40,359 bases of DNA from an uncultured Dehalococcoidia bacterium (GCA_964409515.1 CAYPDY010000004.1:1-40359), one strand, 5' to 3'; counted from the first letter of the stretch, positions 5,863 to 40,259 are shown. Made by a program: numbers and translations. The notes: generated by a model not told the origin, from the letters alone.

Positions 5863-5863
5863 T

Positions 5864-21262: not shown

Positions 21263-24200
21263 GGACGCGGGAATGACCAGGATTGCGCGACTGCTGGCCA
21301 TCCTGCTGATGACAGCCTGCATTATCGATGCCGGCCTGCTGGCCGGCATCGTACCACATGGCGGCCTGGCCTCACGGACTCGCGCCGCTCCTGCCGCACT
21401 GTCAGCTTCAGGTCACGGGGCGGCCGCCGCCGCCCCGTTGGCTGAGGCCTCGGTCACCTGCCAGCCCTTCGGTTTCTGTGGAGAAGGCTCGGCGGAGACG
21501 TTGGTGGCCAGCTTCAGTGACAGCAGCGGTGATCTTATCCTCCAGGGGACCTCCATCGGGCTCTATGTCCTGGGCCTGGACGGCTCCCTGCGGCATTTCC
21601 TCCACACCCCGTTCGGAGTGCGTTTCGTGGCCCTGATCGACGATATCACCGGCGACGGCAACAGGGAGGTCGTGCTGGCGCTGGGCGGCACGCAGGTGCC
21701 CGCGCTCCGCTGCTACGATGGAGCTACATGGGAGAAGCTGTGGCAGTACGCGCCGATGGTGAAGGTCTGGGACGACAGGCACTGGGTGGAGCGACAGACA
21801 TCCATCGCGAGCCTGGCGGTGATACGGGATGAGGGCTCACCGGGCCTGGCTGTGGTCTCCGAGGGGCGGGTGCTGGGCGTCGATGCCAGGGACGGCACCG
21901 AGCGCTGGCGGTCGGGCGCCACGCGCAACGCCAGCCGCCTGGAGGCCCTCGGCGATCTCGACGGCGACGGCGCCGATGAAGTCTTCGTGACCGCGACGGA
22001 CGGCCGCCTCTTCCTGCTCCATGGACGCACGGGTGAAATCGGGTGGCAGACCCGGCTCCCGGAACAGACGTCTGGCGGCGAGGTCACGCAGGCAGCGCCG
22101 GGGACCACCCTGGTGCTGGACGCCGAAGAGGGCCTGTTAGCTGTGGCCGCCACGGACGGGCTGGTGCGGTTGTATGACCTCAGGGCCAAGAGGCTGGATT
22201 GGGATGCCGGTTTCTCAGGGGACGATACGGGCTCCGTGGGCCCCATGGTGCTGGTTCCCAATGCCATGCCCGATGGCCGGCCCGGGATCCTGGCATCATA
22301 CAGCAACTCCGTTCCACTAGGTGACGGGTCCATGGAGATGCGGCAGAGGATGGCCCTGCTCGATCCCGCCGGGAACAGGCTGTGGGATAGGGATGGAGGC
22401 AACGGCTGGAGCCTCAACGTCGGCAACTTCGGGGGCCGGCCGGTCTTGATCCAGCCCGCGGAGGAGGAGATCAGACTGATCGACCTGGCCGATGGCCAGT
22501 CAGTGGTCAAGACTATAGCCACCGGCGCTCTGCAGGAAGGCGCCGGGAATGTAAGCCAGATCGGGTCGGATGCCTTCCTGGTCGGCAGTGAGATGACGGC
22601 CCTGTCCTCGACGGGAGACGTTCTGTGGCACTACCCTCTCATCGATAACGTCAGGGCAACATCCGGGGACTTCGTCGGTGACGCCACCGAGGATACTCTC
22701 TTCAGCGGTGAATGGGAAAGGGAGTCCTGGGTACGCGGTCCTGGCGTCAACGAGGACGGCATCACGCTGGCCGCTCCTCCTTACACGACCCCGGTGGAGG
22801 CGCCGGAGCCTGAGGTGCGCCTGCTGAAGGTAATGGACGGGGCGACCGGAGAGATCGCCTGGTCCTACGAGGTGCCGCCGGGCGACATGAAGGACGAGGG
22901 CGGACTGAAGGGACTGGAGATAGCCGCCAACCTGGTGGGCGATGACGGCGGCCAGGATATCGTCTGCCACCGCGGCGACTCCGTCCTCATCTTCGACGGC
23001 CAGACGGGAACGTCCTCCAGCTTCCCCACGGGTCAACCGGTGGAGTCGCTGCAGGTCATGCGGGGAGGGGGCTCCCGCAGGGCACTCGCAGTCGTCGCCG
23101 CCGACAACCTGACCATCTTCGACATCACCGGCGCCGCCCTCTGGACCACCACGGGCGCCGAATGGGTCGACGGCGAAACCGTCAGGCTCACCACCCTGGA
23201 CGACCTCAACTCCGACAATGTCAGCGACCTGGCCGTCCTCTGTGAGAGCCGGATCGTCCTTCTGGAGAGCGTTGGCAGCGCTGCCGCTTATCAGCCGCAC
23301 CTGACCTTCGATGCGGAGACGGGTTGCCTGATCGAGTTCGCGCAGGTGGTGCCCGACGCCAACGGAGACGGCGTGAGAGAGCTGGCCTACATCCAGCGGG
23401 ACCCGGGAACGCCGCAGGCTGACCAGGAGTGGGATAAGATCCCCAGCCAGCCCCCGCAGCCCCTTTTGGTGAAGCGTTCCCCGGTCGGCGGGGAGCAGCT
23501 CCTGCGAATCACTATCCCCGGATGGAACTCCGCCGTCGAGCTCTCCTCCGGAGACTTCGATGGCGACGGCTGCCCCGACGCGCTCATCTGCTGTGACTCC
23601 TACCAGATATACGGTGACCCTAGTTCCCCCGGGGAATACGGTACGGTGCTGAGGGCGGTCTCCGGCAGGGACGGGGCGACCCTGTGGGAGCACCTGTTGA
23701 CCAACAAGTCGTCCTGGACCGTGAACGGATGGAAGTCCAGCCTCCCGGCCGGCAGTGCGGGGGATGTGACTGGTGACGGCAAGGACGACCTGGGCTGGAC
23801 GTCCTACTCGTCGGTTGAGGCTTATTCCGGCTACTACTGCATCCAGCAGTATGTGGAGGTCTACGATGTGGCCCGTGACCGGCCGGTGGCCACCGTGCCG
23901 GCGAGCCCGCTGCTGGGAGAGGACGCCGGCGGGTACGGCTGGGTCGAGTACCCCCTGCTATTCCCGGGCGATGTGAATGGCGACGGCCGCGCAGAGGTGC
24001 TGGCCGGGGTGAGCGAGCCGACGACGGCCCCCCTCGTCGGGTCCCCATATGCCAACTACGTGGCCGTGCTGGACCTGCAGGCCGGCGAGCGCCTGGCGGC
24101 GTACCTGGGGTTCAGTCCGTTATCGATCTCCCTGTTTGAAACCCATCGGCCCGGGGTGCTGGGCGTGGCCGGGGCCGGCGGCATCTACTTCCTGAACACG

Positions 24201-24602
24201 GAGGCCAGCCTGCAGATCACTTCGCCGGCGCAGGGGGCGAGCACCGGGCCGACGGTGGACGTCCGGTGGGAGGGCACCGCCGAAGGGGAATTCGTCCAGG
24301 TGTTTGTCGATGGAGTGCGCAACCACACGGGCAACGGATCCGAGGTCCGGCTGTACCTGGGCCGCGGAGAGCACGATATCGTGGTCTGGTCCATGGACGA
24401 CTGCGGCCGGATACTCTACGGGCCCGCGGGCCTGGGCGTCCCGATATCGGTCAGGGTCACGGCTTCCCCCTGGAAGCCTGTCATGCTGGTGCTGACCCTG
24501 CTGGTGGTGGCAGCCTTCATCCTCGCCCTGCTCTACCCCAGGCTGCACCGCATATTGCGAGCCCGGCAGAGGGCGGCGAAGATGCAGGCCCAGCGCCCCT
24601 GA
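21252..24602 (+). CDS. giant membrane-anchored FG-GAP/PQQ-like beta-propeller repeat protein (paralog 2)
   Basis: It aligns with 16021..19386 by eye at both ends: SVTC(M/Q)PFG...LRHFL..PFG(I/V)R..ALIDD.TGDG.REVV.AL..TQVPALRCYDGA.WE at the N-terminus and VDGVRN...LYLG.G.H..VV.S.DD.GR..YGPA.L..P...SPWKP...LLYPRLHR at the C-terminus. The ATG lies after GGAGAGAAAGG and overlaps the permease by 11 nt. Confidence 0.75.
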   Translation: MSGRDAGMTRIARLLAILLMTACIIDAGLLAGIVPHGGLASRTRAAPAALSASGHGAAAAAPLAEASVTCQPFGFCGEGSAETLVASFSDSSGDLILQGTSIGLYVLGLDGSLRHFLHTPFGVRFVALIDDITGDGNREVVLALGGTQVPALRCYDGATWEKLWQYAPMVKVWDDRHWVERQTSIASLAVIRDEGSPGLAVVSEGRVLGVDARDGTERWRSGATRNASRLEALGDLDGDGADEVFVTATDGRLFLLHGRTGEIGWQTRLPEQTSGGEVTQAAPGTTLVLDAEEGLLAVAATDGLVRLYDLRAKRLDWDAGFSGDDTGSVGPMVLVPNAMPDGRPGILASYSNSVPLGDGSMEMRQRMALLDPAGNRLWDRDGGNGWSLNVGNFGGRPVLIQPAEEEIRLIDLADGQSVVKTIATGALQEGAGNVSQIGSDAFLVGSEMTALSSTGDVLWHYPLIDNVRATSGDFVGDATEDTLFSGEWERESWVRGPGVNEDGITLAAPPYTTPVEAPEPEVRLLKVMDGATGEIAWSYEVPPGDMKDEGGLKGLEIAANLVGDDGGQDIVCHRGDSVLIFDGQTGTSSSFPTGQPVESLQVMRGGGSRRALAVVAADNLTIFDITGAALWTTTGAEWVDGETVRLTTLDDLNSDNVSDLAVLCESRIVLLESVGSAAAYQPHLTFDAETGCLIEFAQVVPDANGDGVRELAYIQRDPGTPQADQEWDKIPSQPPQPLLVKRSPVGGEQLLRITIPGWNSAVELSSGDFDGDGCPDALICCDSYQIYGDPSSPGEYGTVLRAVSGRDGATLWEHLLTNKSSWTVNGWKSSLPAGSAGDVTGDGKDDLGWTSYSSVEAYSGYYCIQQYVEVYDVARDRPVATVPASPLLGEDAGGYGWVEYPLLFPGDVNGDGRAEVLAGVSEPTTAPLVGSPYANYVAVLDLQAGERLAAYLGFSPLSISLFETHRPGVLGVAGAGGIYFLNTEASLQITSPAQGASTGPTVDVRWEGTAEGEFVQVFVDGVRNHTGNGSEVRLYLGRGEHDIVVWSMDDCGRILYGPAGLGVPISVRVTASPWKPVMLVLTLLVVAAFILALLYPRLHRILRARQRAAKMQAQRP

Positions 24603-29117: not shown

Positions 29118-29159
29118 GGGTGGGGCCGGTTCCCCGGACTGTTCTCCGCGGCCCCACCC
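29118..29159 (+). terminator. GC hairpin after the hypothetical gene
   Basis: GGGTGGGGCC (29118-29127) pairs with GGCCCCACCC (29150-29159). The loop is large (22 nt) and there is no clear U-tract. Confidence 0.35.
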
Positions 29160-29192
29160 TCCGCCATGGAGCGAACCGGCCAACCATAACGC

Positions 29193-29221
29193 TTGACGTT
29201 ATTATCTCCAGGGGCTATGAT
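29193..29221 (+). promoter_or_regulatory. higBA promoter, leaderless arrangement
   Basis: TTGACG (29193-29198), a 17-nt spacer and TATGAT (29216-29221). The ATG at 29228 is only 6 nt after the -10 box. Confidence 0.55.
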
Positions 29222-29227
29222 AGGCGC

Positions 29228-29509
29228 ATGATACGGGACTTCCGCGACAGAGAGACCGAGAAGGTGTTCTCTCGAGAAAGGTCCCGCAGACTCCCGGAAG
29301 GCATCCAGCGGATCGCTCTTCGCAAGCTGGTCATCCTTGATGCAGCGGATTCGCTCGAGGACCTGGCTCTGCCTCCAGGCAATCGCCTGGAGAAACTGCA
29401 TGGGGATCTTGCCGGGCGGTACAGTATCCGCATCAACGAGCGATGGAGGGTCTGTTTCCGCTGGAGCGATGGGGATGCCTACGATGTCGAGATAGCTGAC
29501 TATCACTAG
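29228..29509 (+). CDS. higB: HigB-type (RelE/ParE superfamily, killer protein) toxin
   Basis: MIRDFRDRETEKVFSRERSRRLPEGIQRIALRKLVILDAADSLEDLALPPGNRLEKLHGDLAGRYSIRINERWRVCFRW is the classic HigB-like pattern. The start is trimmed from the track ORF start at 29120. Confidence 0.85.
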   Translation: MIRDFRDRETEKVFSRERSRRLPEGIQRIALRKLVILDAADSLEDLALPPGNRLEKLHGDLAGRYSIRINERWRVCFRWSDGDAYDVEIADYH

Positions 29510-29517
29510 GAGGTGGG

Positions 29518-29823
29518 ATGCCCGGGAAGAAACTGCCGCCGGTTCATCCAGGTGAAGTACTGCTGGAGGAATTCTTGAAGCCCATGGGGATAAGCCAGTA
29601 CCGGCTGGCCAAAGACATAAGCGTGCCACCGCGTCGCATCAACGAGATAGTGCATGGCAAGAGAGCGGTTACGGCCGACACCGCCCTGAGACTGTCGCGG
29701 TACTTCGGCACTTCCGAGCGCTTCTGGCTGAACCTGCAGACCCGCTACGACATCGAGATGGAGAAGGACCGCCTGGGCGGCAGTCTGGACAGGGAGGTCC
29801 GCGCCCTGGCGGCCGCCAGGTAA
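29518..29823 (+). CDS. higA: HigA-type HTH antitoxin
   Basis: VHPGEVLLEEFLKPMGISQYRLAKDISVPPRRINEIVHGKRAVTADTALRLSRYFGTSERFWLNLQ matches HigA. The gene starts 8 nt after higB. Confidence 0.85.
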   Translation: MPGKKLPPVHPGEVLLEEFLKPMGISQYRLAKDISVPPRRINEIVHGKRAVTADTALRLSRYFGTSERFWLNLQTRYDIEMEKDRLGGSLDREVRALAAAR

Positions 29824-29840: not shown

Positions 29841-30146
29841 TCAGCGCTGCAGCTTCCGCACCACCGACTCCACCTTGCCGCTCATGGTCAGGGGCTTGTC
29901 GCGGCGGTCGTCGATCTTGATGGTGGTCACCACCCTCCTCGCGCCACCTTCGAGGACCGCCTCGTGCATCTTGCGGGCTGCCCTGAAGACGTCCTCCAGC
30001 TCCCCCTCCAGGATCGTCCCCATGGAAGTGAGCTCATACACCACCTTCTTCTCCTTGCGCAGCACCTTGAGCGCGGCGGCCACATGCTTGCTGACCGAAG
30101 TCGTCTTGGTGCCTACGGGCACAATGCTGATCTCGGCGACTGCCAT
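29841..30146 (-). CDS. MTH1187/YkoF-family (thiamine-binding-like, DUF77) protein
   Basis: The protein is 101 aa. AEISIVPVGTKTTSVSKHVAAALKVL...YELTSMGTILEGELEDVF...TIKIDDRRDK is typical of the family. Confidence 0.7.
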   Translation of the reverse strand: MAVAEISIVPVGTKTTSVSKHVAAALKVLRKEKKVVYELTSMGTILEGELEDVFRAARKMHEAVLEGGARRVVTTIKIDDRRDKPLTMSGKVESVVRKLQR

Positions 30147-30206: not shown

Positions 30207-30986
30207 TTACCGCCGGAGCGAGGCCGATACCCTGATGGCGTCGGCCTGGCATGATTCCACGCATCTGCCGCACCGTGTGCAGTCGGTGCAGCTCTCGATG
30301 TCCTCCAGGTTCTCTATCTTCACCGGGCAGACCCGGAGGCAGGCCTGGCAGCGGCTGCACTTGTCGAAGTCCACCCGCACCTTCAGCAGGCTCACCGGGT
30401 TGAACAGGCCCAGCACCGCCCCCATGGGGCAGAGGAAGCGGCACCAGAACCGGCCAACCAGAACGAAGAGAGCGAGGGCTATCGCCAGGGTCAGCAGATG
30501 GACGTAGAAGAAAGTCCCGAAGTGAAACTCGGTGGACACGAACCGCTGCGGAATGGCCGCGAACAGGCTGCCCGCCGGGCAGATCTTGCAGAAGAGCGTC
30601 TCCCCCGCCGCCCACGCCAGCACCACCACGGCGAAGAGAACGACGAACTTGATCCAGGCGCCGCGGGGCAGACGGAGGATGTCCCGGCCTCTCCGCCCCC
30701 GCACCAGTGAGACCAGGTCCTGCACCAGCCCGAAAGGGCAGGCCCAGCCGCACCAGAACCTCCCCAGGGCCAGGCCGAACAGGCCGACCACGCCCAGGGC
30801 GTAGAACGGGAACTGCTGCAGGGCAGCGTAGTTCTGAAAGACCCCGATGGGGCAGGCAAATGCCGCCGCCGGGCAGGCGTAGCAGTAGAAGAAGGGGCAG
30901 GGGATGCCGGTCTTCAGTATGGCGAAAACACCCAGGTTGGCGATGACCAGAGCCAGGATCTGGGTGGTCCACCGGAGCTTGCTCAT
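30207..30986 (-). CDS. membrane polyferredoxin (NapH/MauN/CcoG-like, COG0348-type)
   Basis: The likely start is MSKLRWTTQ (ATG 30986). Motifs include RFWCGWACPFG and RFWCRFLCPMG (CX3CP), an N-terminal CPFFYCYACPAAAFACPIG, and C-terminal CSRCQACLRVCP plus CTDCTRCGRCVESC. Several TM helices are present. Confidence 0.75.
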   Translation of the reverse strand: MSKLRWTTQILALVIANLGVFAILKTGIPCPFFYCYACPAAAFACPIGVFQNYAALQQFPFYALGVVGLFGLALGRFWCGWACPFGLVQDLVSLVRGRRGRDILRLPRGAWIKFVVLFAVVVLAWAAGETLFCKICPAGSLFAAIPQRFVSTEFHFGTFFYVHLLTLAIALALFVLVGRFWCRFLCPMGAVLGLFNPVSLLKVRVDFDKCSRCQACLRVCPVKIENLEDIESCTDCTRCGRCVESCQADAIRVSASLRR

Positions 30987-30996
30987 TAGCCTCTTG

Positions 30997-31140
30997 TCAA
31001 CCGATCCCCACACAGGAGGTGCAGATGACGATCACCAGGCTGCGCACCATGTCATACTGGCTGGCCGCGAAGCCGGCCGCGAAGCCCGTGAAGAGCAGAA
31101 GAAGAAGGAGGCGAAGTGCCAATAGACCGTTTTCTCTCAT
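30997..31140 (-). CDS. unannotated 47-aa membrane peptide with a C-terminal CxxC
   Basis: It is not in the ORF track as a separate gene. The sequence is MRENGLLALRLLLLLLFTGFAAGFAASQYDMVRSLVIVICTSCVGIG, after a G-rich SD (GGGGGTTGGGC). Its stop lies 10 nt before the NapH-like ATG. Confidence 0.5.
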   Translation of the reverse strand: MRENGLLALRLLLLLLFTGFAAGFAASQYDMVRSLVIVICTSCVGIG

Positions 31141-31178
31141 GCCCAACCCCCGAATGGACACCCCGGGGCGCCCTCTCG

Positions 31179-31667
31179 TCAGCCGGTGTAGCCAGCCAGC
31201 ACGGAGTCCACCCTCTCGGCAAACTCCGTCGGACCCAGGTATCCCGATATGCGATCGATCTCCGCGCCTGACGCGTCCGTGAAGACCGTGGTGGGGACGT
31301 AGAAGCCCGTGCCCTCTTGCATGTAGCTTTCGTAGAGCCGGCTCTTCCAGGTGTTGCTCTTGACGGGCACCAGCCTCTCGTTTATGAGTGCGCTCACACT
31401 ATCATCTGAGAACGTGCCGGCATCCAGCCGCTTGCAGGCCGGTCAGGTGTCGGTGTAGAAGTTGACCATGATGGGCTTGTTCTCGCTCGCCGCCTGGTCC
31501 TTCGCCGCCTCCCAGTCCCGCTGGAAGACCACCTTCGTTTCCACGCTGTCGGTGCAGCCCGCCCCGCCGGCCATGATCAGGGCCATGGACAGGACCATGA
31601 CGACCGCCCAGGCGAGCCTCAATAGCCGGCCCGCAGCCGCTGCCGCGCCTGACGTCCGGAAGCTCAT
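31179..31667 (-). CDS. thioredoxin-fold lipoprotein with Sec in the redox motif (T-U-P-A-C)
   Basis: ORFs 31443..31736 and 31179..31397 share a frame (31445-31397=48). Read-through of TGA 31445-31443 gives KPIMVNFYTDT-U-PACKRLDAGTFSDDSV..., so the TGA sits at the first Cys of the WCxxCK motif of Thioredoxin_7-type proteins. The signal and lipobox read LSMALIMAGGAGC. The ATG at 31667 forms an ATGA overlap with the upstream gene. Confidence 0.7.
31417..31442 (-). promoter_or_regulatory. candidate SECIS-region stem immediately 3' of the UGA
   Basis: On the mRNA, CCGGC (31442-31438) pairs with GCCGG (31421-31417) around a 16-nt interior that can form a few more pairs. The apical loop is not obviously canonical. 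Confidence 0.25.
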
Positions 31668-32368
31668 CTGCCGCCCCCGGCACAGGCCTGCCCTTCCCGG
31701 ACCACCAGCGACCCCACCGGGCACACGCGCACGCACTCCAGGCAGGAATCACACCTGGCCTCCGCCAGGGGTATCCGGTCGAAGGTGCTGATCGTGGTCT
31801 CCAGGCCGCGGAAGGCGAAATCAATGGAGCCCACGCCATGGCGCTGGCAGACCCAGACGCACTTGCCGCACAGAACGCACTTGTTCGGGTCGTAGGTGAA
31901 CAGCGGGTGGCTGGAGTCGACGGGCAGATCGCGCGGAATGGGCCGCAGCCTCTGCAGCTTCAGCTTGAAGCCCTGGCGGGCCGCGATCTTCTGCAGCTCG
32001 CAGCTCTTGTTCTTCGGGCAACGGGCGCAGTCCAGATGATGATGGGACAGGAGGAGCTCGAAGGCGGTGCGGCGAAGCTGCTTCACCGCGGGCGTGTCCG
32101 TGCGGACCACCATGCCGTCCTCCACCGGCTGGCTGCAGGCCGCGACCGGCGCCCGCCGGCCCTCGATCTCGACGAAGCAGAGCCGGCACCCGCCGAACGG
32201 CGGGTCCGCCTCGCGGATAGCGCACAGGTTCGGGATGTAGATATCGTGGTCCAGGGCCACCCACAGGAGCCTCTCTCCCGCGCGGGCCCTGACCTCGCGG
32301 CCATCAATGCTGAGGACGACTTCCCTGTCTATGGCTCCCTCCACGCACCCCTCAATGCTAGAATACAA
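31664..32368 (-). CDS. 2Fe-2S plus 4Fe-4S protein resembling the NuoG/HymC/FdhA N-terminal module
   Basis: NLCAIREADPPFGGCRLCFVEIEG...ACS is the 2Fe-2S motif. HHLDCARCPKNKSC is a His-ligated 4Fe-4S motif. CVLCGKCVWVCQ and CDSCLECVRVCPVGSL are also present. The exact start is uncertain: the TTG at 32368 is only the ORF-track start. Confidence 0.75.
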   Translation of the reverse strand: MYSSIEGCVEGAIDREVVLSIDGREVRARAGERLLWVALDHDIYIPNLCAIREADPPFGGCRLCFVEIEGRRAPVAACSQPVEDGMVVRTDTPAVKQLRRTAFELLLSHHHLDCARCPKNKSCELQKIAARQGFKLKLQRLRPIPRDLPVDSSHPLFTYDPNKCVLCGKCVWVCQRHGVGSIDFAFRGLETTISTFDRIPLAEARCDSCLECVRVCPVGSLVVREGQACAGGGR

Positions 32369-32389
32369 CGGCAGTCCGGCCCCGGTCCA

Positions 32390-32752
32390 TTACTTGACCA
32401 GCCAGTCCAGGGCCTCCTGCTCGGTCTTGAAGGGCCGGGCCGGGACGGCGACCTTGGCGAAGATGCCCGTCACCGCATCCATGAGCACCTTCTTCACCCC
32501 CGTGACGCCCAGGATGGCGATCTTCTCCACCTTCTTCTTGGCGGTGTCCGGGCCGTGACGCCTGAGCCAGTCCATGACCTCCCGCGATACCGCGGCGTCC
32601 TCGATGTTGCCCAGGTAAAGCACCTTGTTCGGAGAAGCCAGTATCAGCCGGTCGGCCTCCTCCAGGAGCGCCACGAACTCCTTCGAGCTCAGCTTGCGAT
32701 AGTCGACGTAGAGCACCTGCTTGCCCTTGTATTCCATCCACTTCGCCGGCAT
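32390..32752 (-). CDS. small STAS-like (SpoIIAA-like fold) protein, tandem copy 1
   Basis: The protein is 120 aa: MPAKWMEYKGKQVLYVDYRK...KIAILGVTGVKKVL...ARPFKTEQEALDWLVK. The fold assignment is tentative and rests on the overall pattern ending in F..eeA..WL. Confidence 0.45.
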   Translation of the reverse strand: MPAKWMEYKGKQVLYVDYRKLSSKEFVALLEEADRLILASPNKVLYLGNIEDAAVSREVMDWLRRHGPDTAKKKVEKIAILGVTGVKKVLMDAVTGIFAKVAVPARPFKTEQEALDWLVK

Positions 32753-32765
32753 GTGTCCCCCCTTT

Positions 32766-33128
32766 CTACTCGACCAGCCAGTCCAGGGCCTCCTGTTCGG
32801 TCTTGAAGGCCCGGACTGGAATCCCAGTCCTGTCGAACATTCCCACCACCGCCTCCATGAGGATCTTCTTGACCCCGGCGACGCCCACGACGGCCAGCTT
32901 GATGAGCATCTTGCGGCCCATCCTGTCGGCGATTTCCCTGATCTCCTTCATCACTTCCCGCGACACCGCCGCATCTTCGATGTTGCCGAGGTAGAGTATC
33001 TTGCTCGGCGATGCCCGGGCCAGGGCGTCGCCCTCCCTCAGCGCCGCCACGAACTCCTGTGAGCTGGCCTTGCGGACGTCAACGTAGAGGACCTTCTTCC
33101 CCTTGTGTTCTATCCACTTCGCCGGCAT
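32766..33128 (-). CDS. small STAS-like protein, tandem copy 2
   Basis: It starts MPAKWIEHKGKKVLYVDVRK and ends VRAFKTEQEALDWLVE. The SD AAGGGGGGTGCAG matches that of copy 1. The track ORF overextends to 33173. Confidence 0.45.
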   Translation of the reverse strand: MPAKWIEHKGKKVLYVDVRKASSQEFVAALREGDALARASPSKILYLGNIEDAAVSREVMKEIREIADRMGRKMLIKLAVVGVAGVKKILMEAVVGMFDRTGIPVRAFKTEQEALDWLVE

Positions 33129-33180
33129 CTGCACCCCCCTTTCTTCATGTCGCAGGACTGTCGCGGCCATCACTGCCCGG

Positions 33181-33558
33181 TCAGAGGATACCGGGCTCAG
33201 AGAGCCACTTCAGGGCCGCTTCCTCCGTCTCGAACTTGCGGGCCGTGTCCTTCCCCAGGGCCGCGACGAAGGAGTCGAAGAATACCGCCAGCAGGCCCGT
33301 GGCCCCCACCACAGCGATCTTCTCCGCCCGCTGGCGCAGCACCATTCTGGCCGACCCCTTGAGATAGTTCATCACCTCCCCGGTCACGTACGCCCCCTCG
33401 ACGTTGCCCAGAATGAGCACTCTCCCCCGGGAAGCCGCCACCGCGTCATTGGTCTCCTTCATCAGGGGAAGGATCTCCTTCGGCTTCATCCCGCGGTAGT
33501 CGACGTAGAGCACGCTCTTGCCCCGGTGCTCCATCCATCTCCAGCGCATCTGGGTCAT
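33181..33558 (-). CDS. small STAS-like protein, tandem copy 3 (more diverged)
   Basis: MTQMRWRWMEHRGKSVLYVDYRG...KIAVVGATGLLAVF...ARKFETEEAALKWL shows the same pattern. Confidence 0.45.
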   Translation of the reverse strand: MTQMRWRWMEHRGKSVLYVDYRGMKPKEILPLMKETNDAVAASRGRVLILGNVEGAYVTGEVMNYLKGSARMVLRQRAEKIAVVGATGLLAVFFDSFVAALGKDTARKFETEEAALKWLSEPGIL

Positions 33559-33616: not shown

Positions 33617-33654
33617 TTGTCATGGGCCCGGCCGCAGCCTATAATGGCTGCGGC
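33617..33654 (+). promoter_or_regulatory. trxA promoter with a perfect 9-bp inverted repeat bracketing the -10 box
   Basis: TTGTCA (33617-33622), a 17-nt spacer and TATAAT (33640-33645). GCCGCAGCC (33631-33639) and GGCTGCGGC (33646-33654) flank the -10 box directly. Confidence 0.6.
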
Positions 33655-33738: not shown

Positions 33739-34056
33739 ATGGTGAACGAGATCAAGGACCAGGACTTCGAGAAAGAGGTGCTCCAGTCCAGCCTCCCCGT
33801 CGTGGTCGATTTCTGGGCCCCGTGGTGCGGCCCCTGCCGCCAGATCGGGCCCATAGTAGAGAAGCTGTCCGAGGAGTACAAAGGCAAGCTGAAGTTCTGC
33901 AAACTGAACGTGGATGAGAACCATGACGTCCCGTCCAAGTATCACGTCATGAGCATACCAACGCTGATCTTCTTTAAGAAGGGGGAGCTGGCTGACCAGT
34001 CAGTGGGCGCGCTCCCCGAGAAGGCGCTGCGCTCCAAACTGCAGGACCTTCTCTAG
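33739..34056 (+). CDS. trxA: thioredoxin
   Basis: VVDFWAPWCGPCRQIGP is present. The protein is 105 aa and the SD is AAGGAGAAGAGG. Confidence 0.95.
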   Translation: MVNEIKDQDFEKEVLQSSLPVVVDFWAPWCGPCRQIGPIVEKLSEEYKGKLKFCKLNVDENHDVPSKYHVMSIPTLIFFKKGELADQSVGALPEKALRSKLQDLL

Positions 34057-34445
34057 GCCCGCGGGCCCGGCTGGAAAGGACCGGCCTGGCGATAGGGCTT
34101 CTTCCAGGGCTCGCGCTGCAGCGCGAGATGGTCCAGTATCGCCCGTCTGAGAGCAGTCACCGCCAGGGTGGCGCAGTGTGTCTCGGCCTCCGGCAAGCCA
34201 TCCAGTCCGGCTAGTATGTCGCCTTCATCCAGCGCCATGGCGGCGCTGATGGTCTTGCCCTCGACCAGATCGGTCACCATGCTGCCGCAGGCGACCACCG
34301 GCCCGCACCCGTCGGCCATGAACCTGGCTTCCAGAATCCGGCCGTCGACGACCCGGAGCCCGATCTGCATCGAGTCGCCGCAGGGGATGGTTGCCCGGCC
34401 GAGACCGTCCGGGGCCTGAAACTCGCCCATGTGGCGCACCAGCAT
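34053..34445 (-). CDS. NifU/IscU N-terminal-domain-like Fe-S scaffold protein
   Basis: CGDSMQIGLRV...ARFMADGCGPVVACGSMVTDLVEGKTI...THCATLAVTALRRAI shows the three conserved Cys in an IscU-like arrangement. Confidence 0.7.
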   Translation of the reverse strand: MLVRHMGEFQAPDGLGRATIPCGDSMQIGLRVVDGRILEARFMADGCGPVVACGSMVTDLVEGKTISAAMALDEGDILAGLDGLPEAETHCATLAVTALRRAILDHLALQREPWKKPYRQAGPFQPGPRA

Positions 34446-34448
34446 GGT

Positions 34449-35372
34449 CTACCGGCCCACGGCCGTCATCACGCCGGCGGCCTGGACGATCTGCCGGTAG
34501 CGCTCAATCTGCTCAGTCGTGGGGGCGGGAACGTCTCCCATGGTGAACTTGCGGCCCAGCTTCTCGAACTTGGACGCCCCCCAGACATGATAGGGAAGGA
34601 GGGAGATCCTGGCGGCGCCGATCTCTTTGGCAAACCGCGCCGTCTCCTTCAGGTTCTCTTCCGAGTCGTTGTAGCCCGGCACCACCGGCACCCTCACCCA
34701 CAGCCTTCGCTTCGCCGCCGCCTTTCGGGCATTCTCCAGGATCAGCTCGTTGGTCTTTCCGGTGCCTTCACGGTGTTTCTCCGGGTTCATGTGCTTGACG
34801 TCGTACAGGACCAGGTCGGTGTACGCCAGGAGCTTCTCCAGGATGCTCCACTCGGCGAAACCGGAAGTCTCGATGGCGGTGTGGAAGCCTCGTCCCTTGC
34901 AGGCCTTGAGGAGATCAACGGCGAACTCCCACTGCTGGAGCGGATCGCCGCCGGAGAGCGTGACGCCGCCGCCCGAGTTCTGGTAGAACAGCTCGTCAGC
35001 GGCCGCCTCCTGCATCACCTCATCCACGGTCATCCACTTCCCGGTGGCCGCCAGCGCCCCGGTGGGGCAGACATCCGCGCACTGCAGGCACCGGTTGCAC
35101 AGCCCGCGATCCAGCTTCCGGCCCGTGTCACTGACCACGATGGCATTCACCGGGCAGACCTGCGCGCAGCGGCCGCACCGGGTGCAGCGGAGGTCATTGG
35201 TAACGATCTCCTCGTAGGCATTCCAGGACTCCGGGTTGGAGCACCAGCGGCACCGCAGTCCGCAGCCCTTGAAGAAGACGACGGTCCTGATGCCAGGCCC
35301 GTCATGAATGCTGAAACGCTGGATGTTGAAGACCAGCCCCTGCCGGGGCGAAGGAACCTGTTGCGCGGACAT
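34449..35372 (-). CDS. glycyl-radical-enzyme activating protein (radical SAM with two extra ferredoxin-like clusters)
   Basis: FNIQRFSIHDGPGIRTVVFFKGCGLRCRWCSNPES is the rSAM CxxxCxxC context of the PflA/CutD/HpdA type. CTRCGRCAQVCP and CNRCLQCADVCP are the extra clusters. GGVTLSGGDPL is also present. Confidence 0.8.
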   Translation of the reverse strand: MSAQQVPSPRQGLVFNIQRFSIHDGPGIRTVVFFKGCGLRCRWCSNPESWNAYEEIVTNDLRCTRCGRCAQVCPVNAIVVSDTGRKLDRGLCNRCLQCADVCPTGALAATGKWMTVDEVMQEAAADELFYQNSGGGVTLSGGDPLQQWEFAVDLLKACKGRGFHTAIETSGFAEWSILEKLLAYTDLVLYDVKHMNPEKHREGTGKTNELILENARKAAAKRRLWVRVPVVPGYNDSEENLKETARFAKEIGAARISLLPYHVWGASKFEKLGRKFTMGDVPAPTTEQIERYRQIVQAAGVMTAVGR

Positions 35373-38339: not shown

Positions 38340-39413
38340 TTATTCCTTCGTTCTTGAGGCGAGCCTCCTGGCCGCCCTTTCCACGTCACCCGCGCCCAGG
38401 ACCGCGCTGATGACCGCCACGGCATCGGCCCCGGCCTTGATGACTTCCCGGACATTGGTGTCGTTGATGCCGCCGATGGCTACCAGCGGCACGGATACCC
38501 TGGACCGCGTCCGCAGCAGGGTTTCCAGTCCCACCAGCCTGTACCTCTCCTTGGACGTGGTGGGGTAGATCGATCCCAGGGCCACGTAGTCGGCGCCGGC
38601 GGCCTGGGCCCGGACCGCCTCGGCCGTGCTGTGGGTGGAGCAGCCGATCAGCATATCAAGGGGAAGTATGCGCCGCGCCTCCGCCGGAGGCAAGTCATCC
38701 TGCCCCAGGTGAAGTCCATCGGCGCGCACTGCCAGGGCAATATCGAGATGATCGTTCACCACAAACAGAACGCCTTTCTCGGCGCAGAGGGACCGCAGCT
38801 TCCGGGCCGCGGCCAGCACGTCGGCCTTGCCCCGGTGCTTGTCCCTCAGTTGGATGATCCTGGCCCCGCCGCGAACAGCGGCGGCCGCCACGTCCACCTC
38901 ATCGCGCCCCCCGAGCGCCGTGGTGTCCAGAACCAGGTACAGGCCGTTCAACCGGCCGGCCTTGTCGTGCCGGCGCACCCGGCCCGCCAGGTGCTGCTCC
39001 AGGTCGTAGATCTCGAAACGGGCCTTCTCGAATCGGCCCGCCTGGCCGGCCAGCGGTCCACCGGAGAGGCGGCTGAACTCCTCCAGGACGCGCAGGGACT
39101 CCTGGGCCCTCCGCGAGTTGGCCAGCACCAGGGCCGTCAGGTCACCATGCGGCTCGGCCGGGCGCTTCGCTGCCGGAGCGCCCGTGCGCCCCACCGGAGC
39201 GCCTGTGCGCACCGGTGCGCCTACGTCCTCCGCCACGCGGCGGGCCGAGAGGAGATCCTGTTCCAGGGGGCCAAGGGTCTTCACCAGGTCGTGCCGCAGG
39301 GTCTTCAGCCGCCGGGAGCACGGGGCGTCATTGAGCAGAAAGCGGGAAACGTCTTCCAGGACCCGAAGTCCTTCCCCGAGGCGGTCCAGGTTGGCATCGA
39401 CAACTCGCAGCAC
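38340..39413 (-). CDS. thiE: thiamine-phosphate synthase with an N-terminal extension domain
   Basis: The C-terminal 210 aa are canonical ThiE (GLYLVLD...GGARIIQLRDK...VNDHLDIALAVRADGLHLGQDD...IGCSTHS...GADYVALGSIYPTTSK...VAIGGI). The N-terminal part of about 130 aa (MLRVVDANLDRLGEGLRVLEDVSRF) is joined through a GAPV-repeat linker. The GTG start shares 1 nt with the upstream stop. Confidence 0.85.
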   Translation of the reverse strand: MLRVVDANLDRLGEGLRVLEDVSRFLLNDAPCSRRLKTLRHDLVKTLGPLEQDLLSARRVAEDVGAPVRTGAPVGRTGAPAAKRPAEPHGDLTALVLANSRRAQESLRVLEEFSRLSGGPLAGQAGRFEKARFEIYDLEQHLAGRVRRHDKAGRLNGLYLVLDTTALGGRDEVDVAAAAVRGGARIIQLRDKHRGKADVLAAARKLRSLCAEKGVLFVVNDHLDIALAVRADGLHLGQDDLPPAEARRILPLDMLIGCSTHSTAEAVRAQAAGADYVALGSIYPTTSKERYRLVGLETLLRTRSRVSVPLVAIGGINDTNVREVIKAGADAVAVISAVLGAGDVERAARRLASRTKE

Positions 39414-39775
39414 TAGACCTCGGTCAGGCCAGGCTGCAGGTCCTTCACCGATTCAGGCATCTGTCCGTCGCGCGCCGCCTCTATCATGCCCTGAACCTCT
39501 GAAGGCATCTCCATGCCCAGGTCCTGGAATTTCTTCTCGGTCCACCGGCCGATGTTGCGCGGGTCGTTGTAGTAGCCCTCGCCGGGCTGGTACGGATCGC
39601 CTGATTCCTCGTGGATGGTGGCCAGCGACTTATGGTAGGCAAAGCTGGAGAAGACCCGGCTCATCTCGCGGCTGCCGCAGAAAGAACAAGCGGGCGACAG
39701 CGGATCGTTGAAGCCCTTCACGAAGAAGCTGGACTTCTTCTGGCACGAAGAGCAGCGGTACTCGTAGACCGGCAT
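39413..39775 (-). CDS. FmdB-family zinc-ribbon protein with a C-terminal extension
   Basis: The sequence is MPVYEYRCSSCQKKSSFFVKGFNDPLSPACSFCGS (CxxC...CxxC). Confidence 0.75.
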   Translation of the reverse strand: MPVYEYRCSSCQKKSSFFVKGFNDPLSPACSFCGSREMSRVFSSFAYHKSLATIHEESGDPYQPGEGYYNDPRNIGRWTEKKFQDLGMEMPSEVQGMIEAARDGQMPESVKDLQPGLTEV

Positions 39776-39781
39776 GGTGGC

Positions 39782-40204
39782 CTAGTCCTCTCCTCCGGAG
39801 GCGGACTCGGCGCCGGCGCCGGCCGCTGGCTCCTCTCCACCCATGATCCTCTTCTGCATCTCCGGCACCACGCTTTCGTAGCTTTCGCCGCGTTCCAGCC
39901 GCTCCACCATCTCCTGGTATTCCGGCTGCTTCTCACCCTCGGTGCCCCCCATCCTCCGCGACCACTCCACCATGGCAGTAGGATCATTGTGCATCATCCG
40001 ATTGACCAGGACGGGGTCGTCCAGGATATCGCCGTAGACATCCTGGTCCGTCCTCACCGTGGCGAACGTCGAGAACAGGCGAGTCAGGTCCTTACCACCA
40101 CAGAAACCGCAGGTCACGTCCCCGGCTCCCGAGAAACCCCTCACCAGCACGGACACCTTTCGCCCACACTTCTTGTTCTGACAACGGTACTCATAGACGG
40201 GCAT
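39782..40204 (-). CDS. FmdB-family zinc-ribbon protein (tandem paralog)
   Basis: It starts MPVYEYRCQNKKCGRKVSVLVRGFSGAGDVTCGFCGG. The start is trimmed from the track ORF end at 40243. The SD is GGGAGGATAGC. Confidence 0.75.
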   Translation of the reverse strand: MPVYEYRCQNKKCGRKVSVLVRGFSGAGDVTCGFCGGKDLTRLFSTFATVRTDQDVYGDILDDPVLVNRMMHNDPTAMVEWSRRMGGTEGEKQPEYQEMVERLERGESYESVVPEMQKRIMGGEEPAAGAGAESASGGED

Positions 40205-40259
40205 GCTATCCTCCCAAGCCAAAGAGGGCCGCCACTTTGCCATCGGCCCTAACTTAATG

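Follow-up and report, generated by a model that had tools for sequence, protein, structure and literature searches.

A putative Fe-S-fed electron route to an extracytoplasmic selenocysteine thioredoxin in a Dehalococcoidia gene cluster

Among the genes of a minus-strand cluster from an uncultured Dehalococcoidia bacterium are a NapH-like membrane polyferredoxin, a 47-aa CxxC mini-protein and a thioredoxin-fold lipoprotein (Trx) with a predicted selenocysteine. The cluster lies in a 40,359-nt stretch of DNA, called the window here. From observed gene content, motifs, conservation, fusions and Sec/Cys correspondence, we lean toward the reading that this Fe-S-fed core supplies a (seleno)thioredoxin outside the cytoplasm with reducing power, a job like that of DsbD and CcdA. 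The polyferredoxin, mini-protein and Sec-Trx, a module shared among uncultured anaerobic bacteria and archaea, probably form an outward electron route distinct from the known DsbD/CcdA proteins.

Gene content and layout

Seven minus-strand ORFs were found at the coordinates given in a first-pass annotation of this DNA, and the motifs and the in-frame TGA were also as it had described. The features are as follows:

33181-33558, minus strand: STAS/SpoIIAA-like paralogue 1, 125 aa (PF11964, 26.5 bits)
32766-33128, minus strand: STAS/SpoIIAA-like paralogue 2, 120 aa (PF11964 22.8 bits and DUF7793 23.3 bits, both below cut-off)
32390-32752, minus strand: STAS/SpoIIAA-like paralogue 3, 120 aa (PF11964, 25.4 bits vs. 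cut-off 25)
31664-32368, minus strand: NuoG-N/HoxU-like Fe-S protein, soluble (Pfam and NCBIfam domain matches)
31179-31667, minus strand: Thioredoxin_7-type lipoprotein (Trx), 162 aa, active site T-U-P-A-C
31443-31445, minus strand: in-frame TGA within Trx, read as selenocysteine from alignment to the catalytic Cys of homologues
31418-31441, minus strand: candidate SECIS hairpin immediately following the UGA (RNAalifold consensus)
30997-31140, minus strand: mini-protein, 47 aa, C-terminus ICTSCVGIG
30207-30986, minus strand: NapH-like (Fer4_5) membrane polyferredoxin, 259 aa (Pfam Fer4_5 and Fer4)
29841-30146, minus strand: MTH1187-family (Thiamine_BP/DUF77) protein (TIGR00106, 109 bits vs. 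cut-off 54.7)
33739-34056, plus strand: trxA ORF, divergent from the cluster
33617-33645, plus strand: sigma-70-like promoter site on the trxA strand (promoter scan)

The tight packing was borne out: from STAS-like paralogue 1 to the polyferredoxin, gaps of 52, 13 and 21 nt are followed by a 4-nt overlap and by gaps of 38 and 10 nt. The overlap is the ATGA at 31664-31667, where the NuoG-N-like stop meets the Trx start. The NuoG-N-like ORF has a TTG start, with an alternative in-frame GTG at 32344. Judging by its position, the co-directional MTH1187-family gene, which follows the polyferredoxin after 60 nt, is probably an eighth member; it has the same position in loci L001, L085, L087 and L089, and in L086 it comes after NuoG-N-MBL. 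Fur and ZnuABC genes are located downstream of the window cluster. Divergent trxA is kept in loci L001, L004, L084, L085, L087 and L089, and its product is a possible candidate for an alternative cytoplasmic reductant. Overlapping divergent promoters had been proposed for trxA and the cluster, but the promoter scan returned the single plus-strand site listed above and none on the minus strand.

The polyferredoxin and its CxxC partner

A Pfam search matched Fer4_5 in two stretches of the polyferredoxin (72.9 bits), plus Fer4. Four TM helices, positioned from an AF2 model of moderate confidence (pLDDT 76.9; ∼52 in the Cys-rich loop 1), are arranged as two internal repeats, whose CX3CP motifs fall in register when one half is aligned to the other. 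The invariant Cys were read off two alignments of 21 and 110 sequences. Each repeat carries one outer-face CxxCP pair (C35/C38 and C133/C136, plus C45 and usually C30) and one inner-face CX3CP pair (C79/C83 and C182/C186), and the C-terminus is a 2x[4Fe-4S] ferredoxin domain predicted to be cytoplasmic. Since the Arg-rich 77-109 loop has to face the cytoplasm, as does the Fe-S domain, loops 26-58 and 129-157 are predicted to lie outside. For the membrane part, structure searches found no homologue of solved structure. Even for NapH, NosR and RdhC, no function has been assigned to the CX3CP motifs (PMC5928378).

The mini-protein consists of a predicted N-in TM helix, an amphipathic segment (SQYDMVRS...) and the C-terminal ICTSCVGIG; it matched no Pfam or NCBIfam family. 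The mini element is encoded directly upstream of the polyferredoxin at 34 of 82 related loci, all from MAGs and phylogenetically non-independent, in Dehalococcoidia, Bipolaricaulota, "Thermotogae" MAGs, Bathyarchaeia, Methanofastidiosum and others. These 34 are the loci nearest the window among the 82. The outer-loop Cys motifs are present in nearly all polyferredoxins of mini-containing loci and missing from most distant homologues without the mini element. Comparison of the loci confirmed a core of polyferredoxin plus mini-protein, syntenic across phyla beyond chance, and by this pattern the mini-protein is an obligate partner of the polyferredoxin. The neighborhood conservation expected for the seven-gene relay of the first-pass annotation was found for the core, whose genes neighbor each other in related genomes; the full set of seven does not recur as a unit, with the NuoG-N-like and STAS-like genes limited to particular clades.

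The mini element is either free-standing (45-71 aa, with a stop 2-3 residues past CxxC-G) or runs into a thioredoxin domain, a fusion seen at at least 20 loci in many phyla. A thioredoxin-fold gene lies within 3.5 kb at 28 of the 34 loci with the mini element vs. 1 of the 48 without it (again non-independent MAG loci); the mini-protein and polyferredoxin lack a nearby thioredoxin at six loci. Three architectures were observed. In Dehalococcoidia the Trx_7 lipoprotein is encoded on its own. A mini-Trx fusion that ends 0-3 nt before the polyferredoxin is found in Bathyarchaeia, Methanofastidiosum, Methanobacteriota, "Thermotogae" and Bipolaricaulota. The third, a single chain of ∼696 aa, joins a TlpA-like domain to an Ig-like one (CxxxxC), two TM helices, the CTSC motif and a Trx domain. 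From the signal peptide, the two TM helices and the positive-inside rule, we infer that the CxxC motif and the Trx domain of the fusions are both extracellular. The fusions and the 28/34 vs. 1/48 association make the link between polyferredoxin, CxxC mini-protein and Trx stronger than the first-pass annotation could know. We found no description of this module among Pfam and NCBIfam families, solved structures or published papers.

An ordinary NapH-type respiratory module, in which the polyferredoxin is a quinol dehydrogenase or electron conduit for some respiratory enzyme and the Trx and other genes are mechanistically uncoupled neighbors, appears improbable. The top NCBIfam matches are indeed NapH (95 bits) and NapH/MauN (93 bits), and the six loci without a nearby Trx fit such a module, but both scores are far under the family cut-offs (234 and 213), and the cluster contains no gene for NapG/A, Nos, RdhA or an FMN-binding domain. 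The polyferredoxin also has the extra outer Cys pairs, which to our knowledge E. coli NapH lacks, and the fusions and the Trx association are hard to credit to neighborhood alone. In line with the first-pass view that no characterized pathway covers the set, no HMM placed the cluster proteins in a Nap, Nos, Ccm or Cco module. NapH-like proteins serve many reductases and oxidases (PMC8238504), which is compatible with the respiratory assignment. The same work proposes that they conduct electrons across the membrane, in modular fashion, to carriers outside the cytosol, a precedent for the outward relay favored here. Compared with NapH, NosR, RdhC (PceC) and the NapH-like clusters (Meheust et al., 2021, PMC8238504), the polyferredoxin has in common four TM helices, two CX3CP motifs, Fer4_5, a modular coupling to an outside redox carrier and, except for RdhC, two C-terminal 4Fe-4S sites. 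It differs in that the carrier is a thioredoxin fold with a CxxC mini-protein instead of an FMN-binding domain or NapG, in its two additional outer-face CxxCP pairs, and in that no respiratory enzyme is encoded nearby.

The selenocysteine thioredoxin and the clade-specific genes

The Trx matched Thioredoxin_7 at 54 bits in Pfam, with a signal peptide ending at a conserved Cys (...AGGAGC); it matched best the C-terminal (gamma) domain of DsbD and the C-terminus of TsoB. The TGA is located in the column of the first (catalytic) Cys of CPAC in homologues L002, L006, L007 and L040, and is kept in five diverged lineages (the window, L001, L004, L087 and L089) at protein identity down to 51%. Both halves of Trx are conserved and in frame at the TGA loci, with conserved sequence past the TGA. 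By this standard Sec/Cys-pair signature, the TGA is read as a selenocysteine codon, in agreement with the first-pass annotation; Sec is optional, since many relatives use Cys. The candidate SECIS hairpin has 8 pairs and an apical loop AGCGGC in the RNAalifold consensus of the five TGA loci, with no compensatory change; its fold is no more stable than shuffles, and an Rfam search for SECIS gave no match. No Sec machinery or selenium-utilization genes are present in the 40-kb window. These SECIS and Sec-machinery results, together with automatic gene calls that split the Trx gene, would fit a true stop, leaving a split or decaying Trx, no selenoprotein and a partly degenerate cluster. We consider this highly improbable: the TGA falls exactly at the catalytic-Cys column in all five lineages, and both Trx halves are conserved and in frame, the usual Sec/Cys-pair signature.

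The NuoG-N-like protein contains Fer2_4, NADH-G_4Fe-4S_3 and two Fer4 domains (Pfam/NCBIfam). Direct reading of its motifs (four Cys for 2Fe-2S, HxxxCxxCx5C and two CxxCxxCxxxC) gave the same count as the first-pass annotation, one 2Fe-2S and three 4Fe-4S sites. The gene lies upstream of the triad in the window, L001, L004, L084, L085, L087 and L089, and occurs without the triad in L086, where a CsoR-type regulator is encoded ahead of it. It accompanies the core in Chloroflexota only. The recurring gene order there and the overlap of its stop with the Trx start point to Fe-S donor coupling, and the protein is probably a candidate cytoplasmic electron donor in Chloroflexota.

The STAS-like assignment is marginal, given PF11964 scores of 26.5, 22.8 and 25.4 bits against the cut-off of 25; paralogue 2 is paralogous to paralogues 1 and 3. 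The family comprises only 37 clusters at ≥51% identity, always at one locus in a narrow clade, and its synteny for that reason says nothing about function. By this distribution, the STAS-like array is a clade-specific addition.

Proposed relay and competing readings

In the scheme that we infer for topology, direction of electron flow, membrane-domain cofactors (Fe-S clusters included) and substrates, a low-potential cytoplasmic Fe-S donor would reduce the two [4Fe-4S] clusters of the polyferredoxin C-terminal domain. The donor would probably be the co-translated NuoG-N/HoxU-like protein in Chloroflexota and ferredoxin elsewhere. Electrons may then be relayed across the membrane by the conserved Cys pairs of the two-repeat domain, from the two inner CX3CP to the two outer CxxCP pairs; these pairs could either coordinate Fe-S clusters, intramembrane or outer, or be redox-active disulfides. 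At the outer face they would pass to the CxxC of the mini-protein, seated against the polyferredoxin. The resulting dithiol would reduce the UxxC (or CxxC) of the lipoprotein Trx, and Trx would in turn reduce envelope substrates.

DsbD and CcdA have the job predicted here, bringing reducing power through the cytoplasmic membrane to a thioredoxin fold on the other side, and it is the gamma domain of DsbD that the window Trx resembles most. Distant versions with an Ig-like Cys pair, membrane helices and Trx on one chain echo the alpha-beta-gamma layout of DsbD, although their Ig-like domain has no sequence match to DsbD-alpha; their TlpA-like partner also recalls DsbD/CcdA pathways. The DsbD/CcdA membrane domain (PF02683) was absent from every protein of the cluster in Pfam/NCBIfam profile searches, and its place is taken by the NapH-like Fe-S protein and the CxxC single-TM element. 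The predicted donor here is an Fe-S protein or ferredoxin, whereas theirs is cytoplasmic thioredoxin.

The direction of flow is not fixed by gene content alone. Membrane oxidases joined to an extracytoplasmic Trx domain are known (VKOR-Trx fusions), and the module could by that design be a disulfide-forming DsbB/VKOR analogue in which the outside Trx oxidizes substrates and electrons pass inward, via the mini-protein and polyferredoxin, to a cytoplasmic acceptor. This reversal is quite doubtful: low-potential centers of the 4Fe-4S or ferredoxin type would have to take electrons thermodynamically uphill from thiols (about -120 to -270 mV), the host lineages are strict anaerobes, and a Sec as the attacking residue, as in this active site, is typical of reductases. 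The DsbD-gamma-like and TlpA-like partners are also of the reductive type, TlpA-like partners being typical of reductive pathways.

A metal- or chalcogen-handling role is less probable than outward disulfide reduction but deserves some weight. The polyferredoxin would then be a CcoG-like extracytoplasmic reductase of Cu(II), selenite/Se(0) or polysulfide, and the Cys/Sec of the mini-protein and Trx would carry reduced species (e.g., selenide for SelD) instead of reducing disulfides. In its favor is a sister branch of polyferredoxins (33-39% identity, outer Cys motifs kept; PVC, Armatimonadota and other MAG loci) located between selD (373 bits) and selA (533 bits), with a different small TM protein ending in CPT as partner. 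Because of this location, a selenium-related role is possible and the family may serve another chemistry. However, the selD/selA-linked loci have neither the CxxC mini-protein nor a thioredoxin neighbor and may thus be a separate recruitment, and the window holds no selenium-utilization genes. The thioredoxin system reduces selenite, and both the Fur and ZnuABC genes after the cluster and the CsoR-type regulator before the NuoG-N gene in L086 are compatible with metal handling; the TlpA-like and DsbD-gamma-like partners indicate protein thiol chemistry.

CcoG, a cupric reductase of the COG0348 class encoded with the small single-TM CcoS, is the precedent for such a role. CcoG (FixG/RdxA) with CcoS (FixS) resembles the present pair in placing a COG0348-type polyferredoxin beside a ∼50-aa single-TM protein and in its extracytoplasmic substrate. 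The CcoG model gave only 15 bits against a cut-off of 317, however, and the mini-protein has no detectable CcoS (FixS) similarity (no Pfam match at E<0.1); CcoS, as far as we know, has no CxxC, and the cluster has no cbb3 oxidase or Cu-ATPase context.

For outward reduction of the Trx, ferredoxin:thioredoxin reductase and HdrB offer a mechanistic analogy only. They would share the proposed conversion of one-electron Fe-S chemistry to two-electron disulfide reduction feeding thioredoxin, and Cys-Pro-rich motifs, but are soluble proteins of unrelated folds with no sequence relation detected. NqrDE/RnfAE, transmembrane electron carriers, hold an intramembrane [2Fe-2S] by Cys pairs of two pseudo-symmetric repeats. 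Although they belong to an unrelated family (Foldseek to RnfB, 9eri_B, probability 0.07), they are a precedent for an Fe-S cluster between two membrane repeats, as is putative for the polyferredoxin.

Organisation of the cluster and its accessory genes

ORF analysis recovered all seven minus-strand genes in the order and at the coordinates described in the first-pass annotation, and Pfam and NCBIfam upheld the domain calls for their products.

Genes of the cluster (window coordinates)
33181-33558, 32766-33128 and 32390-32752, minus: three STAS-like paralogues, 120-125 aa (ORF)
31664-32368, minus: NuoG-N/HoxU-like Fe-S protein, 234 aa (ORF and domain matches)
31179-31667, minus: thioredoxin-fold protein (Trx), 162 codons, with a TGA interruption at 31443-31445 (ORF and Thioredoxin_7)
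30997-31140, minus: mini-protein, 47 codons (ORF)
30207-30986, minus: polyferredoxin, 259 codons (ORF; two Fer4_5 and one Fer4)
29841-30146, downstream of the polyferredoxin: MTH1187-family gene (same place in relatives)

The seven genes are spaced by 52, 13 and 21 nt, a 4-nt overlap (ATGA), 38 and 10 nt. The G+C content of the window is ∼64%, and its closest relatives are Dehalococcoidia/Chloroflexota MAGs. Since the MTH1187-family gene follows the polyferredoxin in relatives as well as in the window, the cluster is probably eight genes long. A promoter/terminator scan of the window found no internal terminators in the cluster beyond chance and gave no support for a minus-strand promoter. Overlapping divergent promoters had been proposed; the sole sigma-70-like site (33617-33645) lies on the side of trxA, the conserved divergent neighbour, and the scan did not bear that proposal out. 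A glycyl-radical-enzyme activase gene (TIGR02494, 361 bits) and a NifU_N scaffold gene (34053-35372, minus) adjoin trxA tail-to-tail. L001, L084, L087 and L089 (numbered loci from other genomes) have this same order, activase-NifU-trxA and then the divergent cluster; no glycyl-radical enzyme gene was detected in the window. On the other side, a HigB-like toxin ORF (recognized by eye, no family match) and a HigA antitoxin gene (TIGR02607, 117 bits; 29120-29823, plus) form a pair, an insertion that separates the MTH1187-family gene from the Fur/ZnuABC genes. This spot is held by a different small gene in L001, L087 and L089.

For comparison, the polyferredoxin was searched against 5.8 billion proteins, which gave 382 relatives, and a scan of one genome per GTDB species yielded 80 loci. 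Fetched loci were compared by tblastn, ORF clustering and motif-plus-context searches. All of the loci are from MAGs and they are not phylogenetically independent.

The seven genes had been viewed as one unit. Comparative support covers a three-gene core of polyferredoxin, mini-protein and Trx, and the NuoG-N-like gene is found without this triad in L086. The NuoG-N-like and the three STAS-like genes are accessories to the core. The NuoG-N/HoxU-like protein (Fer2_4, NADH-G_4Fe-4S_3 and two Fer4 domains) scored 172.9 bits vs. 333 for HoxU and 106.2 vs. 470 for NuoG; by these matches it shares only the N-terminal Fe-S module with them. No NuoE/F, HoxF or hydrogenase genes were found in the window. 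It is one of many free-standing ∼220-aa proteins that form a large family in Chloroflexota, and its gene precedes the triad in the window, L001, L004, L084, L085, L087 and L089, in some cases across an intervening MBL-fold gene. In several Chloroflexota relatives this MBL-fold (Lactamase_B) gene overlaps the NuoG-N-like stop and separates it from Trx; it is absent from the window, and no specific MBL subfamily could be assigned. In L086, a gene for a CsoR/CstR-type metal or persulfide repressor precedes the NuoG-N-MBL pair.

MBL-fold genes in Chloroflexota relatives
L085: 6659-7501
L086: 6660-7502
L087: 7086-7928
L089: 7087-7980

The STAS-like paralogues matched SpoIIAA-like PF11964 with 26.5, 22.8 and 25.4 bits, marginal at the cut-off of 25, and sequence searches returned no solved homologue. 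Their family is narrow (37 clusters in all at ≥51% identity), and wherever the contig is long its members occupy this one locus, in arrays of 3-4; their synteny is therefore uninformative on function, which cannot be separated from recent common descent. A role for them in the cluster gained no comparative support.

The polyferredoxin and the mini-protein

The polyferredoxin matched Fer4_5 (PF12801) in two stretches (72.9 bits vs. a cut-off of 22 in Pfam) in addition to Fer4, and it has the hallmarks of the NapH-like superfamily, i.e., two Fer4_5 repeats with CX3CP and a C-terminal 2x[4Fe-4S] domain. It fell below every family threshold tested: 95.4 bits vs. 234 for NapH (NF007013), 92.6 vs. 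213 for NapH/MauN (TIGR02163) and 15.1 vs. 316.7 for CcoG (TIGR02745), with NosR also below threshold and its gene context missing. No napG, napA or other nap genes were present in the window cluster, L001, L002, L084, L085, L087 or L089, and the ccoNOQP/ccoI context is absent from the window. Judged by these profile scores, the protein is a member of the NapH-like (Fer4_5) superfamily outside the NapH, NapH/MauN, NosR and CcoG families. The mini-protein 'SQYD' recalls the CcoS motif 'SGQYDD'. CcoG/CcoS membership was rejected, as the mini-protein gave no FixS match at E<0.1 and the CcoG score was ∼15 bits; the likeness is an analogy only.

In a 110-sequence alignment, 16 of the 16 relevant Cys residues were invariant or nearly so. 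The outer-loop Cys motifs (window numbering) are C35-x2-C38-P, then C45-P, and C133-x2-C136-P. Since the membrane-domain halves align in register at CX3CP, the protein looks like an internal duplication, each repeat contributing one outer CxxCP and one inner CX3CP pair. The AF2 model reached a pLDDT of 57 with a 21-sequence alignment and 76.9 with 110 sequences. Foldseek against the PDB matched the ferredoxin domain alone; neither it nor sequence searches found a solved structure of the membrane module.

Topology was assessed by manual reading, the positive-inside rule, the AF2 helices and the published NapH topology (simple Kyte-Doolittle TM calling missed TM2). We infer that the N-terminus, with K3 and R5, has to lie in the cytoplasm together with the Arg-rich loop 77-109 and the Fe-S domain; this would place the Cys-rich loops 26-58 and 129-157 outside. 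The AF2 helices (pLDDT 76.9) agree with this arrangement, as does the N-in/C-in topology of NapH.

The mini element, either free-standing or fused to a thioredoxin domain, is made up of a TM helix and a short amphipathic stretch ahead of the motif [ILV]-C-x-[SANE]-C-[VILM]-G. Among 82 loci, 34 have it immediately ahead of the polyferredoxin; the records of these 34 are labelled Dehalococcoidia, Bathyarchaeia, Bipolaricaulota, 'Thermotogae', Methanofastidiosum, Methanobacteriota, Elusimicrobia, Clostridia, Spirochaetales and unclassified bacteria. The polyferredoxins of these 34 loci are the closest to the window's among the 82, and nearly all carry both outer-loop Cys motifs; of the more distant homologues, most lack the outer motifs and all lack the mini element. 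The exceptions, with Cys-rich loops but no mini element, are a selD/selA-linked branch and a Syntrophales group. We concluded that the mini-protein is real and a constant partner of the polyferredoxin. It matched no Pfam or NCBIfam family and defines a conserved, previously unannotated family of 45-55-aa membrane proteins. Exhaustive phmmer with the 47-aa protein against 1.84 billion representatives gave 10 matches at E≤0.001; this query is too short, and the motif-plus-context search in fetched loci is far more sensitive.

In six loci the mini-protein and polyferredoxin genes stand alone among housekeeping genes (HU/IHF-like, PPIase, dCMP deaminase), without a Trx-fold gene within 3.5 kb. This makes the pair of genes the minimal unit; a Trx partner, if any, would be encoded elsewhere.

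Loci with mini-protein and polyferredoxin only
L024: 5622-6750
L028: 5716-6702
L033: 1728-2820
L038: 4894-5974
L031: 4477-6242
L043

Thioredoxin-fold partners and selenocysteine

A Trx-fold gene was present within 3.5 kb in 28 of the 34 loci with a mini element vs. 1 of the 48 without. Three architectures were observed. In Dehalococcoidia (the window, L001, L002, L004, L006, L007, L040, L084, L085, L087 and L089) the mini gene is preceded by that of a separate Trx_7 lipoprotein. In Bathyarchaeia, Methanofastidiosum, Methanobacteriota, 'Thermotogae' and Bipolaricaulota the mini element continues into a thioredoxin/glutaredoxin-fold domain with its own CxxC, and the fusion gene stops 0-3 nt ahead of the polyferredoxin. 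The 'Thermotogae' fusion additionally carries a signal peptide as well as an Ig-like domain in which C-x4-C is invariant, and a TlpA/AhpC-TSA-like protein is encoded upstream of it. Several Bipolaricaulota carry all parts on one ∼696-aa chain, in which an N-terminal domain is followed by a TlpA-like thioredoxin and an Ig-like domain (invariant motif Y-x-Y-C-x4-C-F-Q); then come two TM helices, the CTSC element and another thioredoxin domain. This protein directly precedes the polyferredoxin; the equivalent parts are on two genes in 'Thermotogae' MAGs.

Multi-part proteins of Bipolaricaulota and 'Thermotogae'
L016: 3908-5998
L020: 3908-5989
L023: 1397-3493
L051: 3803-5899
L012: 3120-4145
L013: 2172-4324

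Because the parts recur in different arrangements across two domains of life, the polyferredoxin, mini element and Trx fold appear to constitute a functional unit despite the non-independence of the loci (classic Rosetta-stone evidence). The fusion proteins run from signal peptide through Ig-like domain, TM helix and short positive loop to a second TM helix. With the Ig-like domain predicted outside and two TM helices after it, the CxxC motif and thioredoxin domain would be outside too. The Bipolaricaulota/'Thermotogae' layout echoes DsbD alpha-beta-gamma, but there is no sequence match to DsbD-alpha. The Ig-like CxxxxC domain was tried as a DsbD-alpha equivalent and rejected: the PDB profile search and Pfam scan gave weak Ig-like matches alone (NPCBM_assoc, DUF11). 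The window Trx is a Thioredoxin_7 protein, which among full families matches the C-terminal domains of DsbD and TsoB best. Its signal peptide ends in a Cys conserved among homologues, and it is expected to be a lipoprotein.

The TGA of Trx is kept in the window, L001, L004, L087 and L089, and aligns exactly with the first Cys of CPAC in L002, L006, L007 and L040. Conserved in-frame Trx sequence continues on both sides; the L004 protein (51% identity) reads P-U-N-A-C. In alignment this is the standard Sec/Cys-pair signature of a UxxC selenoprotein, and it would add an extracytoplasmic Trx_7-type lipoprotein to the selenoprotein families. Sec as a required part of the system was not borne out, given the Cys forms in L002, L006, L007 and L040. 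A candidate SECIS hairpin of 8 pairs directly 3' of the UGA is common to five TGA loci, with no covariation and a stability no greater than that of shuffled sequence (z = 0.11); Rfam gave no relevant SECIS match. No sel genes and no tRNA genes of any kind were found in the 40-kb window. Two tandem FmdB-family Zn-ribbon proteins (PF09723) are encoded at 39413-40243 (minus), with a pair at the matching relative position in L084, L085 and L087; FmdB is among the families with selenoprotein forms (PMC13188914).

A putative Fe-S route to extracytoplasmic thioredoxins

The Fe-S-to-thioredoxin relay proposed at first pass gained strong comparative support for the three-gene core and none as a seven-gene unit. 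The best-supported reading is that the core module would export reducing equivalents. To our knowledge, all characterised reducing routes to extracytoplasmic thioredoxin-fold proteins are DsbD/CcdA relays fed by cytoplasmic thioredoxin. In the DsbD-beta/CcdA domain, two TM helices have an essential Cys each. No cluster protein matched that domain (PF02683), and Trx alone matched the DsbD model NF001419 (positions 459-572, 48 bits vs. a cut-off of 330). By analogy, the module may work like DsbD/CcdA yet, lacking PF02683, stands outside that family.

Electrons would pass from a cytoplasmic Fe-S donor to the C-terminal 2x[4Fe-4S] domain of the polyferredoxin, then through the inner CX3CP and outer CxxCP pairs to the mini-protein CxxC, the Trx UxxC/CxxC and envelope substrates. 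The membrane Cys pairs could be either cluster ligands or disulfides that cycle. If they bind clusters, the intramembrane [2Fe-2S] of NqrDE/RnfAE and the Fe-S-to-disulfide step of FTR are parallels. The reductive direction is favoured on four counts: electrons would enter at low-potential centres, Trx is similar to the DsbD gamma domain, the partners are TlpA-like and Sec is at the attacking position.

The selD/selA-linked branch (Planctomycetota, Armatimonadota and other MAGs) has polyferredoxin homologues of 33-39% identity with the outer Cys motifs, encoded between selD and selA.

Loci of the selD/selA-linked branch
L035: 4109-8434
L039: 3590-6798
L041: 3804-6804
L037: 4178-6693
L061: 4065-6807
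L046: 5965-8542
L036: 88-2675

The upstream selD (TIGR00476, 373 bits) has an N-terminal Cys-rich 'GHCICDPKQPCPC..C.C' extension and a C-terminal AhpD-like domain; selA (TIGR00474, 533 bits) follows the polyferredoxin. The small partner here is a ∼115-aa single-TM protein ending '...CPT', unlike the mini-protein. The branch possibly ties the membrane protein family to selenium supply for selenocysteine synthesis. The same selD-polyferredoxin-selA context leaves room for the main alternative, that the polyferredoxin family reduces a chalcogen or a metal, which we consider unlikely.

A wider reading keeps the export of reducing equivalents and adds selenium: a ferredoxin-driven Fe-S conduit would replace DsbD/CcdA in many uncultured anaerobes of both domains, and the selD/selA sister branch would supply reduced selenium for selenophosphate synthesis. 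The pseudo-symmetric NapH-like protein would bind one cluster at the inner CX3CP pairs and a second on the outer CxxCP pairs, completed by the mini-protein. The mini-protein CxxC would receive electrons at the outer membrane face by an Fe-S/disulfide mechanism like that of FTR and hand them to thioredoxin-fold (seleno)proteins. We put this combined reading forward tentatively, as rather unlikely in its entirety. A NapH-like Fe-S route as such would be a mechanistically distinct third solution. It would link the thiol redox state of the envelope directly to the pool of low-potential ferredoxin in strict anaerobes, and it would offer a testable function for the CX3CP motifs found in the NapH/NosR/RdhC superfamily, which have lacked a known role ever since they were discovered (PMC5928378). 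The sister branch may be relevant to the way in which prokaryotes obtain selenium in reduced form; according to a 2026 review, prokaryotes have no identified system that transports selenium specifically and with high affinity (PMC13188914).

The module would be a variation on two things already known, NapH-like conduits and the reduction of extracytoplasmic thioredoxins. NapH-like proteins were described as modular transmembrane conduits to extracytosolic FMN-binding domains, and thioredoxin-like proteins were assigned to a class apart that DsbD serves (Meheust et al. 2021, PMC8238504). The NapH-like/thioredoxin pairing is not in that paper, nor in Pfam or NCBIfam, and a search of literature outside subscription-only papers (polyferredoxin/NapH family with thioredoxin, DsbD, TlpA or selD) found no description of the module, possibly because all loci are from MAGs.

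Elsewhere in the window, two paralogues of 1121 and 1116 aa with PQQ_2/FG-GAP beta-propeller repeats (16021-24602, plus) flank an ABC-2 transporter pair (19376-21262), a region that may be a surface or envelope system. At 4468-7051 (plus), an FAD-linked oxidase (FAD_binding_4) gene is followed by one for a CCG-domain/Fer4_8 protein (a GlcD/GlcF- or HdrD-like pair), near two family-III CoA-transferases and a GMC-type oxidoreductase; this region appears unrelated to the cluster.
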